Assembly: GCA_002269645.1 (NCBI GenBank)
Contig: NIVC01000408.1
Location: forward strand, 1-64,000
Source of the DNA: Macrostomum lignano
Taxonomy: Eukaryota
DNA length: 64,000 nt
Direction: 5' to 3'
Each line of letters opens with the position of its first letter. The first letter of the stretch is position 1. Below the pieces are notes generated by a model. That model did no database searches, was not told the origin of the DNA, and saw nothing but the letters and a program-made list of their open reading frames with translations. Below, piece after piece: positions 55,101 to 57,379 of this stretch. The position numbers were made by a program, and so were the translations under genes.

Positions 55101-57379
55101 ATGGCAAAGTTTTCATGAATTAAAGCTTCAGTACAATGCTATTAACTGAGGGCTTATTGACAGCAGTCAATGATTGACTGTTTTTTTCACATTTTTGCGC
55201 GAGTACTTATTGGTGCATTTTTGTCGTTTAGTGTTTACAGAAATGGTTTACTGAATGAAATCTCGCTTCTTTTGAAATATTTTAACAATTGATTATATAT
55301 CCATTCTGTCTAATTTACAGTTTACTTGCGTGTGTGCTGCTGAGCACTCATAGACAGAGCAATATAAAAGTCAAGAGAAACTCACGGACAAGCACAGCTC
55401 GGTCGCCACCACGTGGGCGTCGCCAACCTTCATGAATTTGTCGTCCACCGCCGCGCCCCGACCGCCGGCCGCCTTCAGCTTGCCCTCCTTCACCGCAGAC
55501 ATCGCGCTGAACTGAACTTCCGGCAGCGACACGAACAGCAGGCTGCTGACCGCCAGCTCCTCGGCCAGCTCTGCGAGGATAAATAATTGACCTTCTTTGT
55601 CACCTGCGTAAGGCCTAGCCAGGGTAGATAGATAGGGTAGATAGGGTAGATAGGATAGATAGGGTAGATAGGATAGATAGGGTAGATAGGGTAGTTAGGG
55701 TAGATTGGGTAGTTAGGGTAGATTGGATAGATAGGGTAGATAGGGTAAATAGGGCAGATAGTGTTGTTAAGGTAGATAGGAAAGATATTGTAGATAAGAT
55801 AGATAAGGCATATAGGGTAGATAGCGTAGTAGACGATATAAATAGGATATACAGGGTAGATTGGATAGATAGGGTAGATACGGCAGTGACAAGATAAGTA
55901 GAAATGGGAGGTAGATAGATTTGGAGGGCAAGAGAGTGGTAGATAGGCTAATTTTGCCCACCCACCTTTGTTCTTCTTCAAGTCATCATCGTCCATTTTA
56001 TCGGCAATGTCCGTCTTGACCACGGAAGCGCTGGAGAAAGTCCGGAACAGGTGCGCTATGGAATTCTTGGTGATGGCGGGGCAGTGCTGCAGGTCGATGT
56101 TCATCTGGACTTTCTGTTGGTGCAGTGAAGGTGTGTCGTTTTACTACACTCTTCTACTAATAGTAGCACCATATATAGACGGTATTTTTTAAACAGGATA
56201 CAAACCTTAATCTTCTCCGGATCCTTTCTCTCTTTTTCAAAGGCTTCGCACAGCCAACGGATGCCCTGGTCGGTGATGTAGGCCTCGCCGCGAAATGACA
56301 GTTGGAAAAATTGCGCTGAATCCTTCTTGGCCTGGGTTCGGGTTAGAGCAGGGTGGTTAGCTAGTAGTAGTATTGACATAGTAGTAGTAGTAGTAGTAGT
56401 AGTAGTAGTAGTATTAGTAGTAAGTAGTAGTAGTAGTAGTAGTAGTAGTAGTAGTAGTAGTAGTGGTAGTAGTAGTAGTAGTAGTAGCAGCAGCAGTAGT
56501 AGTAGTAGTAGTAGTAGTAGCAGTAGTAGTATCAATAGTAGTAGTAGTAGTAGTAGTAGTAGTAGTAGTAGTAGTAGTAGTAGTAGTAGTAGTAGTATCA
56601 ATAGTAGTAGTAGCAGTAGTAGTATCAATAGTAGTAGTAGTAGTAGTAGTAGTAGTAGTAGTAGTAGTAGTAGTAGTAGTAGTAGTAGTAGTAGTAGTAG
56701 TAGTAGTAGTAGTAGTAGTAGTAGTAGTAGTAGTAGTAGTAGTAGTAGCAGTAGTAGTAGTAGTAGTAGTAGTAGTAGTAGTACATTCTACACTCACCAG
56801 CTCCTTGGCGAAGCTCTTCAACGTCATGTCCGTCCACAACGATGTCCACAGCGGCAGGGTGTTGTCGAATTCCCCCGGCCCATCCGAGCAGCAGAGAATC
56901 TGGCTGTCGGAGCGCTGCTTCAACAAACTGTCGAACTTGCCCTTTTGTGTTGATTAAAACTTGGATTATTATGCTTGACTGAAGCTTGAAATATCCCAAC
57001 CCTTGGTAATTTTAACCGAAAAACTTAAACGGCAACATATACTACTCACATCGAGTGCGTTTCTCTCCAGTTGAAGGCGGCTGTAGGCATTTCGAATAGC
57101 CTGCGAATTTTTCGTGCTCAACTGGCTCTGCGGACCGGCGGCGACCTCGTCGCGACGTCGTCGAATAGGACGCACCAAGTTGTTGGAGAACAGATTCTTC
57201 TGCTGCTCCTCCTCATCCGAGTCCGGAGTCTCCGAGCCAGTTTCTGTCTCAGTTTTCTCTTCCTCTGAGAAGTGACTAGCGGTCTGCTGTTGCAGCATCT
57301 GCTCCTGCTGCACCTGCTGCTGAATGGGAAAAAGATTCGGCGGCGCGGCTTTCCTGGCTGTCTGCTTTGTTCGAGCCAT
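25124..57379 (-). CDS. Giant ROCO protein: H3-tail-like N-terminus, COR-like region, Cys-rich motif, SPRY, LRR, Roc GTPase, COR, TIR-TIR, CaaX; 33 exons, ~3,683 aa
   Basis: Phase-consistent exons: 57379-57050, 56941-56798, 56331-56206, 56104-55966, 55570-55386, 54368-54252, 53294-53095, 52369-52142, 51816-50844, 49985-49785, 49003-48415, 47406-47051, 46529-46414, 46137-46116, 45435-45228, 45144-45024, 44369-43142, 42848-42632, 42057-41734, 40757-40645, 40563-39931, 39280-38951, 38559-38053, 36741-36361, 35921-35487, 34357-34196, 34093-33897, 33797-33309, 32290-31783, 29886-29335, 28763-28385, 26780-26503, 25387-25124 (11052 nt). That this is one transcript is inferred from unbroken frame, not from RNA data. 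Confidence 0.8.
25396..26470. repeat. Two abutting related 28-bp arrays (GAGCTGAGATCCCGGTGTGAGATTGCAT)n and (GAGTTTCATTAGCTGAGTTCCGGTGAAG)n
   Basis: They fill the last ROCO intron; the unit switches near 26060. Confidence 0.93.
27392..28375. repeat. 20/~30-bp compound minisatellite (CAGCAGTGAAGACACTGGGT / ...GAGTTAGTAGGAGAGACACTG)
   Basis: Abuts the donor of ROCO exon 28763-28385. Confidence 0.93.
28995..29305. repeat. 30-bp minisatellite (TCACCCATCAAAGCTGAGTGTACCTGCTAA)n
   Basis: About 10 tandem copies. Confidence 0.92.
29952..31738. repeat. 10-bp satellite (CACCATCCAA)n
   Basis: About 1.8 kb, splitting the TIR2 coding region. Confidence 0.97.
32309..33295. repeat. 51/52-bp minisatellite
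   Basis: ACTGGGCTTGTGTCCGAGACTGGAACACTGGTTTATGCCTGAGACAGGGAA, about 19 copies. Confidence 0.95.
34400..35362. repeat. 46-bp minisatellite
   Basis: GGTCAGGGTGCGTGTACATTGGGGCTGAGAGCGACTGTTGATGATT, about 21 copies. Confidence 0.95.
36070..36325. repeat. ~22-bp degenerate repeat (TTAAGACGTTGATAGGGT...)
   Basis: Tandem copies in the intron splitting the Roc domain. Confidence 0.85.
36790..38000. repeat. ~15-bp GT-rich satellite (TTGGGGTTGTTG(G/C)A)n
   Basis: Fills the LRR-Roc intron; produces the false QQP and GLL ORFs. Confidence 0.95.
38053..40100 (-). other. Leucine-rich repeats of the ROCO protein
   Basis: Repeated LxxLxLxxxxLxxLP units: LRHLRTLRLSQLPLRTLPPELASLQTLEELAVD, LANLKTLQLNYQAIRRIPDAIVRLRRLQSLQLSSNPLLESLS. 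Confidence 0.9.
39625..39812 (+). mobile_element. SINE family B copy (5'-truncated)
   Basis: GGTTCGATTCC B-box plus the same 3' block as 5411-5541. Confidence 0.65.
40790..41710. repeat. 35-bp minisatellite (GACTATCCCATCAAGACACACAACAGCCGCACAAT)n
   Basis: About 26 tandem copies. Confidence 0.95.
42235..42605. repeat. 34-bp minisatellite (GGGACAGAAAGCAGCCCAACAAAGGATCAAGGAT)n
   Basis: About 11 tandem copies. Confidence 0.92.
42890..43132. repeat. 34-bp minisatellite (CAGGTGAGACAGGTAGCCACACACTGGGATACAA)n
   Basis: About 7 tandem copies. Confidence 0.92.
44125..45400 (-). other. SPRY (RanBPM/SPRYD3-type) domain of the ROCO protein
   Basis: IVSRGAEGTISIGLVPFGYHTTSQPGWRAGSIGYHGDDGG ... GGFFACVGMHSPGEIVQL, spread over three exons. 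Confidence 0.85.
44495..44895. repeat. 27/28-bp G-rich minisatellite (GTGAGGCAGGATTGGGGTGGGTGTAAGG)n
   Basis: Tandem copies; related to the array at 45448-46035. Confidence 0.92.
45448..46035. repeat. 28-bp G-rich minisatellite (GAGGCAGGATTGGGGTGGGTGTCGG..)n
   Basis: Tandem copies; related to the array at 44495-44895. Confidence 0.92.
46682..46960 (-). mobile_element. tRNA-headed SINE, family A, full length with (ATT/ACT)n tail
   Basis: Minus strand begins GTAGCCCAGTGGTCAGAGCGTCGGACTCACGA...GGTTCGATTC (A and B boxes). Shares its body with 3305-3580 and has a simple-repeat tail. Confidence 0.8.
47714..48240. repeat. Two (AAC/AGC)n tracts flanking a GC-rich unique island
   Basis: Tracts at about 47714-47900 and 48150-48240. 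Confidence 0.9.
49100..49560. repeat. 22-bp minisatellite (GCTCCTGACTCATTCTGTATCA)n
   Basis: About 20 copies; sister array of 50085-50843. Confidence 0.93.
50085..50843 (-). repeat. 22-bp minisatellite starting exactly at a 5' splice site (GTGAGTCAGGAGCTGTGACAGA)n
   Basis: About 34 copies; the first copy is the true donor of exon 51816-50844. Confidence 0.95.
51870..52120. repeat. 24-bp repeat (GGTGTCAGGCCCGCTGAAGTTAGG)n
   Basis: Tandem copies. Confidence 0.88.
52425..53015. repeat. 21-bp minisatellite (TTGACCCACGGATCCTAGAGC)n
   Basis: Tandem copies with occasional 9-bp TTGACCCAC duplications. Confidence 0.93.
53350..54230. repeat. 20-bp minisatellite (CTCAGTCTACCCTACCTACT)n
   Basis: About 44 tandem copies. 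Confidence 0.95.
54495..55085. repeat. 14-bp minisatellite (TTGAATGTTTATGG)n
   Basis: Tandem copies. Confidence 0.95.
55620..55885. repeat. 9-bp degenerate repeat (TAGATAGGG)n
   Basis: Tandem copies. Confidence 0.85.
56355..56783. repeat. (TAG)n microsatellite
   Basis: Fills ROCO intron 2. Confidence 0.97.
57050..57379 (-). CDS. ROCO gene first coding exon: MARTKQTARK (histone H3 tail copy), Q-rich and acidic tracts, basic RPIRRRR
   Basis: GCC-ATG-G Kozak context, in-frame TAG at 57410-57412, GT donor at 57049. Confidence 0.8.

Follow-up and report, generated by a model that had tools for sequence, protein, structure and literature searches.

The first 64,000 nucleotides (nt) of contig NIVC01000408.1 from the flatworm Macrostomum lignano, hereafter the window, carry a ROCO-TIR gene whose predicted product of 3,733 codons has at its very start an exact copy of the histone H3 tip, M-ARTKQTARK. 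RNA-level data show that this tail is the true N-terminus of the protein, and its codons point to purifying selection on the peptide. We consider it likely that the tail mimics H3 functionally in one way or another. The reading that we tentatively put forward is that the product, a member of an invertebrate LRR-Roc-COR-TIR family, is a signalling protein gated by GTP and held at a membrane by prenylation, on which the tail would be a bait, acting as an integrated decoy or as a tripwire.

The tail is the N-terminus of the protein

On the minus strand from 57379 the gene reads MARTKQTARKAAPP, followed by Gln-rich and acidic low-complexity sequence; MARTKQTARKA is encoded at 57379-57347 and APP comes next. 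The original prediction, made from the letters of the window, had noticed this H3(1-9) copy, without naming its strand, and the lack of a histone fold behind it. Both observations hold, the Pfam scan of the public protein PAA83725.1 having detected no histone family. The context of the start codon, GCC-ATG-G, and the in-frame stop, a TAG that begins 33 nt upstream, had also been read correctly. The 5' end of the gene comprises the following features.

57465..57467, minus strand: spliced-leader trans-splice site, where the terminal ATG of the leader falls (loose end in RNA-type runs)
57438..57467, minus strand: nine-codon upstream open reading frame (ORF) opened by the leader's ATG, which ends before the main ORF and is out of frame with it
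57350..57379, minus strand: start codon and H3(1-9) copy ARTKQTARK; the H3(1-8) part common to other species is 57353-57376
57050..57379, minus strand: coding part of exon 1, amino acids (aa) 1-110, with the tail, the Gln-rich and acidic linker and a basic patch (joined to exon 2 in the RNA-type contigs from three studies)

One DNA-type and three RNA-type sequencing runs, the latter from three studies, were mapped on 56790-60000. The run type "RNA" is a guess: no run containing the locus is recorded as RNA, 14 were guessed to be so, and the three of them that were examined skip a 108-nt GT-AG intron that the DNA-type run keeps. All three RNA-type runs have a loose end of 19-20 nt at 57467, absent from the DNA-type run, that matches the M. 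lignano spliced leader published in a passage of PMC5173321. Since a spliced leader marks the 5' end of the mRNA, a coding exon upstream of the tail, which would have made the motif internal, is excluded, in agreement with what had been assumed. The leader's own ATG lies 88 nt from the main ATG (83 nt in two copies of the gene) and is out of frame with it in 4/4 copies, and the 5' untranslated region has no other ATG, so that an in-frame start within the leader is ruled out as well.

The trans-splice acceptor reads AAG in two gene copies (C1610 and C5245) and in the DNA run X15. At 57465-57467 the window, like copy C4265, reads ATG instead, the last three bases of the leader. This ATG may be a correction of the assembly by RNA reads, or a real allele.

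The tail exon belongs to a ROCO-TIR gene

The gene has 35 exons on the minus strand, from 57379 to 25127, and 34/34 introns are GT-AG. Mapped on the window, PAA83725.1 (P0121) matches the predicted product with a mismatch at no junction. The Roc exon matches the M. lignano entry BOX15_Mlig030627 at 100% in a homologue search, and the cluster of that entry includes PAA83725.1, which opens with the motif. Exon 1 is joined to exon 2, and further to exon 3, in 3/3 RNA-type runs. The predicted link between the tail exon and the Roc-COR-TIR exons is thus supported, by RNA joints for exons 1-3 and, further on, by the unbroken splice chain, by the public model and by the same N-terminal leucine-rich repeat (LRR) module standing ahead of Roc-COR-TIR in full-length relatives. 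A separate transcript for the tail is excluded, though only indirectly.

PAA83725.1 shows, in this order, an N-terminal LRR module, a SPRY domain, further LRRs, Roc, COR, two TIR domains and a CaaX end.

55966..56941, minus strand: exons 2-4, N-terminal LRR module common to the family, which we take to resemble FBXL/AMN1 (alignments; a local hidden Markov model finds it in 88 of 215 family sequences)
47051..47406, minus strand: exon 12, segment rich in Cys and conserved across the family, probably a zinc-binding module
44123..45288, minus strand: SPRY domain, aa 1331-1473, exons 16-18 (phmmer to PDB 2yyo SPRYD3, E 4e-17)
38146..39945, minus strand: leucine-rich repeats, aa about 2226-2478, exons 22-24 (Pfam LRR_14, LRR_8, LRR_4)
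35799..36726, minus strand: Roc GTPase, aa 2515-2677 (Pfam Roc E 1e-19; best PDB match LRRK2, E 1e-41)
33524..35762, minus strand: COR-A and COR-B, aa 2690-2991 (Pfam)
29626..33400, minus strand: two TIR domains, aa about 3030-3319, the start being approximate (Pfam TIR_2, two stretches)
26503..26780, minus strand: exon 34, Cys/His motif close to the C-terminus, conserved and probably a zinc ribbon (140 family matches, three profile rounds)
25124..25138, minus strand: C-terminal CaaX motif CSVQ after a basic stretch, plus stop codon (exon map)

The Pfam limits are 2515-2634 for Roc, 2690-2828 for COR-A and 2851-2991 for COR-B, COR coming directly after Roc. All G1-G5 motifs of Roc agree with the family consensus (147 alignment rows), so that by its motifs the domain appears intact for GTP binding. 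As to the TIR domains, the alignment places in TIR2 a Cys-x-x-Glu of the alphaC type (C3263 and E3266, codon 29785-29787), the Glu being present in 136/136 ungapped rows of 147, while TIR1 has no Glu at the catalytic position. The placement of E3266 in alphaC rests on the known motif, and exon 31, which covers the second half of TIR2, returned no TIR match when compared with PDB. According to passages of PMC9153377, the alphaC Glu is needed for NAD+ cleavage in characterised TIR domains, and TIR2 would probably signal in this way.

Exon 1 is present four times in the genome and the Roc exon three times, numbers that agree with the partial duplication mentioned for M. lignano in PMC5173321. Two of the other copies show frame changes, in exon 1 (L038, on C5245) and in exon 9 (L037, on C4265), which are either assembly errors or signs of decaying duplicates.

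The codons of the tail differ from those of H3 genes

A degenerate DNA pattern for ARTKQTAR occurs at 34 places of the 764-Mb genome and its reversed control at none; the motif is therefore not due to chance. Thirty of these loci were inspected, of which 28 are histone H3 genes and two the ROCO-TIR gene; the remaining four are two further copies of the ROCO-TIR gene and two loci with H3-gene codons. The 27 nt that encode the tail comprise 7 synonymous and 20 non-synonymous sites. We counted over them 5-9 differences from the H3 matches (28/28), all silent, and 0/20 replacement sites were changed; the segment was picked because it matches H3, which inflates the signal of an unchanged peptide, and any H3 gene interrupted by an intron within its first eight codons would be missed. 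Near-saturated silent sites together with an unchanged peptide therefore point to selection on the tail as a peptide. A recent H3 retrocopy, one of the refutations listed in the original prediction, is ruled out by these silent differences and by the lack of a histone fold.

One could still assume that the tail is no working mimic, and that a grafted 5' piece of the multi-copy H3 gene has been kept as a generic basic, stable N-terminus or drifts neutrally. H3 genes are indeed abundant donors, and at least five Lys or Arg are found within residues 2-16 in 40 of 86 complete N-termini of the family, in most lineages of which the tail has been lost or has decayed. However, neither drift nor a mere need for charge fits well with silent sites near saturation against no replacement change, even if the choice of the motif inflates this contrast, or with the uncharged T, Q, T and A that four lineages keep and that a mere charge patch would not require. 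We regard this explanation as improbable.

Beside these loci, a divergent H3 variant with changes at tail positions 11, 13, 19 and 28-31 was seen at L010, L018 and L029 (on C206, C1119 and C2680), each time about 2.2 kb from an H3 gene with a canonical tail and on the opposite strand. Another locus, L034, is a frameshifted H3.

Distribution and history of the tail

An initial homologue search returned 120 proteins of at most 2,000 aa, mostly partial, and none of them had the tail. A Roc-COR-TIR query then gave 114 proteins of 2,053-6,533 aa from placozoans, rotifers, a nematode, molluscs, annelids, nemerteans, a brachiopod, a hemichordate and amphioxus. Three of the 114 start with MARTKQTAR, as the search proposed in the original prediction was meant to reveal: one from an annelid (Owenia P0142) and two from bivalves (Mercenaria P0145 and Ylistrum P0229), so that with the flatworm the carriers span three animal phyla. 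The motif is followed by ASKG in Owenia, by QSTGGKAP in Mercenaria (that is, H3 1-16 with K9Q) and by RSHH in Ylistrum. Residue 9 is thus K, A, Q and R in the flatworm, Owenia, Mercenaria and Ylistrum, respectively; the conserved unit is therefore H3(1-8), and K9, on which weight had been laid, is ruled out as the key residue.

The pooled family contains 215 sequences. Among the 88 with the N-terminal LRR module, 86 start with Met, and four of these seemingly complete N-termini, which include isoforms and unverified starts, have the exact tail. Weak matches were found in two nemertean proteins, at residue 2 of Tubulanus P0139 and at residue 11 of Lineus P0153. For each of them 0/2,000 shuffles did as well, which is borderline after 86 tests; both look like decayed tails. 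Two other candidate relics were not accepted, Capitella P0199 (p 0.0015, uncorrected for the 86 tests) and Branchiostoma P0134 (whose score of 43 lies inside the null range). When residues 1-40 of P0145 were compared with 382 long-protein candidates, the query alone came up at E<=10, by a method too insensitive to establish absence. An N-terminal profile run against 1.84 billion representatives gave, among its best 150, mostly unrelated multi-repeat LRR proteins, and the motif was present in one of the 149 new rows, a flatworm copy. P0281, closely related to the scallop protein P0229, begins downstream of the expected tail position.

One may wonder whether the recurrence across species is an artefact of gene models, predictors having fused H3 fragments to ROCO genes, the tail being then a feature of the flatworm only. 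P0142, P0145 and P0229 do rest on annotation. Yet residue 9 departs from H3 in each of them, they stem from the annotations of three species and fall in the same family, their tail runs directly into the linker and LRR sequence typical of it, and the flatworm case has its RNA support regardless. Such an artefact is very unlikely.

Trees were built with FastTree (147 rows) and with IQ-TREE (quick, LG+G4; 44 of the 147 rows). The carriers belong to two subfamilies, the flatworm and Owenia proteins to a SPRY-bearing clade and the two bivalve proteins to another, where each is nested among tail-less sisters. On the 44-row tree, presence and absence of the tail require four changes, all forced by supported branches, and the carriers do not cluster: 500/500 shuffles need as few changes. 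One of the four changes is due to a flatworm paralogue, P0245, whose first ~640 residues are missing altogether; since the whole N-terminal region is absent there, a shared origin of the tail within the SPRY clade is plausible. A single origin for all carriers would take 11 losses among 51 complete tips (FastTree topology). The tail may have been captured repeatedly, or it may be old and have been lost many times, and either history fits; the decayed nemertean cases favour some age.

The C-terminus points to membranes

The flatworm protein ends in KKNRSKVCSVQ. In the family, a Cys at position -4 is found in 92 of 114 proteins, against a Cys background of 2.3% (for this count the unrelated ankyrin kinase P0244 was removed and P0121 added). 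The motif suggests prenylation and attachment to membranes. It had escaped the original prediction, and it makes the tethering of the protein to chromatin, considered there as an alternative, less likely.

A nuclear role would nevertheless be compatible with a lipid anchor if the protein, prenylated like B-type lamins, sat at the inner nuclear membrane and used its tail for import or for binding chromatin readers. Lamins use a CaaX motif, and H3 tails can serve as import signals. The basic patch RPIRRRR, announced as resembling a nuclear localisation signal, does lie in exon 1 (aa 71-77; its Ile reads Asn in copies C4265 and C1610 and in the RNA-type contigs of 3/3 runs), and, according to passages of PMC8166343, chromatin proteins are over-represented among the human H3 mimics. 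As a localisation signal, however, the patch did not stand, being absent from the Mercenaria and Ylistrum rows of the N-terminal alignment A1. Pfam scans found no chromatin domain in the carriers, and two features that a pattern search detects before the first LRR, poly-Pro in 28/86 and a motif that we take to be WH2-like in 13/86, point rather to the actin cortex. We hold a role in the nucleus or its envelope to be quite improbable.

Possible roles of the tail: a switch operated by the host, or a bait

Two explanations deserve a closer comparison. The first, which we find possible though doubtful, is a switch operated by the host itself: the tail would be an optimised substrate for its own H3-tip enzymes (writers and erasers of R2, T3, K4, Q5 and T6) and a docking site for readers, perhaps the MBT repeat of sister ROCO proteins, and would tune Roc-COR-TIR signalling in normal physiology. 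The residues kept coincide with the K4-centred reader footprint (free A1, R2, K4) described in passages of PMC8166343; regulation of this type has been proposed for human H3 N-terminal mimics. Moreover, the family possesses a methyl-lysine reader, as MBT is found in 39 of 215 sequences, including those of Trichoplax and amphioxus, and 32 of the 39 have the cage-type motif that was searched. Lys/Arg-rich starts are frequent among MBT members (21/28, versus 19/58 of the others, a difference confounded by kinship), which suggests an old module of basic tail plus MBT whose tail would later have been replaced by the H3 tip. Owenia and Ylistrum have MBT paralogues in addition to the tail-bearing protein. 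Through this link the host-operated switch stays close to the bait. On the other hand, the family count gives MBT in 0/4 carriers. In PAA83725.1, neither the Pfam scan nor this count revealed an MBT repeat before the main LRRs; an MBT/Tudor relic proposed at aa 1790-1880 was rejected as unsupported (hhalign probability 1.2%), and none was seen in P0131, P0234, P0245 or P0015, no genome-wide MBT search of M. lignano having been made. A housekeeping role would also predict a less patchy distribution, and it leaves two peculiarities of Owenia unexplained.

These concern P0142, in which the tail is directly followed by a Rac1-like GTPase (residues 19-191, E 4e-58) with intact switches I and II and an altered P-loop, and in which residues 1395-1415 resemble H3(15-35) (score 62; 0/60 shuffles reach it, their maximum being 54). 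Microbial enzymes commonly target both Rho-family GTPases and histone tails. The presence of an H3 tip and a Rac1-like copy, two unrelated and highly conserved host targets, on one TIR protein fits a bait best, and the patchy distribution of the carriers is what is expected of inserts that are gained and lost. Other members carry MBT, PLAT, C2 or dynein-stalk-like inserts. The Owenia Rac1-like domain, the second H3 piece and the TIR2 glutamate are circumstantial support for a decoy, a device known to be integrated into TIR receptors (PMC9153377, in part).

We therefore propose, as the tentative reading preferred here, the following course for the bait. Trans-splicing and translation yield M-ARTKQTARK, as the RNA-type runs show. 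The initiator Met, which is as a rule removed before Ala, would be cleaved off and leave Ala1 exposed as in H3, and prenylation of the CaaX motif would place the protein on a membrane, facing the cytosol. An enzyme that recognises the H3 tip in its free form, for instance a methyltransferase, kinase or clipping protease of a microbe or a mislocalised one of the host, would then modify or cut the bait. This would relieve autoinhibition, Roc-COR would dimerise and TIR2 would signal, probably by NAD+ cleavage, as we infer from the intact G motifs and the Glu at the catalytic position.

Several points weigh against this proposal. We know of no ligand, binding partner or pathogen. The nucleus is the main place of action of histone-modifying enzymes, whereas the CaaX motif points to membranes. 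The exact tail is missing from 82 of the 86 seemingly complete N-termini and is thus dispensable for the family. M. lignano has three close Roc lineages and there are few paralogues per genome across the family, unlike in fast-expanding immune receptor families. Finally, the start sites of the Owenia, Mercenaria and Ylistrum carriers rest on public gene models, and the RNA joints seen in the flatworm are those of exons 1-3, the longest contig measuring 5,021 nt for an ORF of 11.2 kb.

A more general and rather unlikely extension would be that membrane-anchored ROCO-TIR NADase sensors of Spiralia guard conserved targets of the host whose copies they carry, namely the H3 tip (four lineages) and, in Owenia, Rac1 and a second H3 segment. 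If true, this would be an animal counterpart of the integrated decoys of plant NLRs, with a GTPase as its switch, and, within the limits of the literature search, the first receptor guarding the histone code itself.

Relation to known systems

The flatworm protein shares its LRR-Roc-COR core with the ROCO proteins, such as bacterial Roco and LRRK1/2, LRRK2 being the best PDB match of its Roc domain. In contrast to LRRK1/2, a Pfam scan of PAA83725.1 finds no kinase family; COR is followed by the two TIRs and the CaaX end, and the "kinase" of database names is a transferred label. Passages of PMC9334734 and PMC4104024 note LRR-ROCO-TIR proteins in Aplysia and Trichoplax, respectively, some with MBT. 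The Aplysia protein LOC101848126, with LRR, TIR, ROC, COR and MBT according to PMC9334734, is our family member P0172. Neither these two papers nor PMC11378527 use the word "histone" anywhere in their main text. The cited passages make no mention of the family-wide CaaX, the poly-Pro or the WH2-like motif, CaaX not having been specifically sought in PMC9334734 and PMC4104024.

A second parallel can be drawn with the H3 N-terminal mimicry proteins (H3TMs) of Chen et al. 2021, defined in passages of PMC8166343 by M-Z-R-X-K, i.e. R2 and K4, and enriched in chromatin-binding proteins. The flatworm tail has this pattern at a true N-terminus, with Ala as Z, which allows removal of Met. It differs from H3TMs in that the copy is exact over 8-16 residues and that its bearer is a Roc-TIR protein of 400 kDa which has a motif for a lipid anchor.

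The plant NLRs with integrated decoys (such as the WRKY domain of RRS1, in passages of PMC9153377) likewise display a copy of a host target on a nucleotide-gated LRR protein with TIR output, and their inserts differ among members as those of the ROCO-TIR family do. Here, however, the switch is Roc-COR and not NB-ARC/NACHT (STAND), and the putative bait is a short linear peptide; the protein is no NLR, though it may work like one. N-terminal tripwires are also carried by NLRP1 and CARD8. Brown algal ROCO proteins have, like ours, been proposed as immune receptors, but their variable part consists of shuffled repeat exons in a simple LRR-ROCO protein (PMC11378527, in the passages concerned, with "decoy" occurring 0 times in its main text).

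A full-text literature search, with supplements and most subscription journals outside its scope, found no report of an H3 tail on a ROCO or TIR protein and no paper naming the M. lignano gene or the two bivalve loci. ROCO-TIR proteins and histone mimics are known kinds; within this search their combination appears new.

An exact, selected H3 tip on a large signalling protein of non-nuclear appearance, found in three animal phyla, offers a handle on what the ROCO-TIR proteins of invertebrates sense. Should the tail be a bait, animals would detect enzymes that attack histone tails by displaying such a tail on a membrane-bound alarm protein, and effector-triggered immunity would extend to chromatin and to an LRRK2-like GTPase switch. 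Should it be a host-operated switch, enzymes of the histone code would directly control a cytoplasmic TIR enzyme. M. lignano is a laboratory model amenable to transgenesis (a passage of PMC5173321), so that either explanation can be approached there. Antibodies against the H3 tail may cross-recognise the ROCO-TIR protein.

Neighbourhood of the gene

An ankyrin-repeat gene at 59660-63100 (plus strand, Pfam Ank), which presumably encodes a TRPV channel, is transcribed away from the ROCO gene. On the other side, exons at about 2580-9555 (plus strand) seem to us to resemble an aromatic amino-acid decarboxylase, and those at 10278-12641 (minus strand) presumably belong to a homeobox gene. An ORF at 19541-20530 (minus strand) ends in a UBA-like domain (Pfam UBA_4) and resembles what we take to be the end of ACK-type kinases. 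A tandem repeat of 61-67 bp with telomere-like CCCTAA units occupies 13034-13885, and nearly each large intron of the window contains a different minisatellite.

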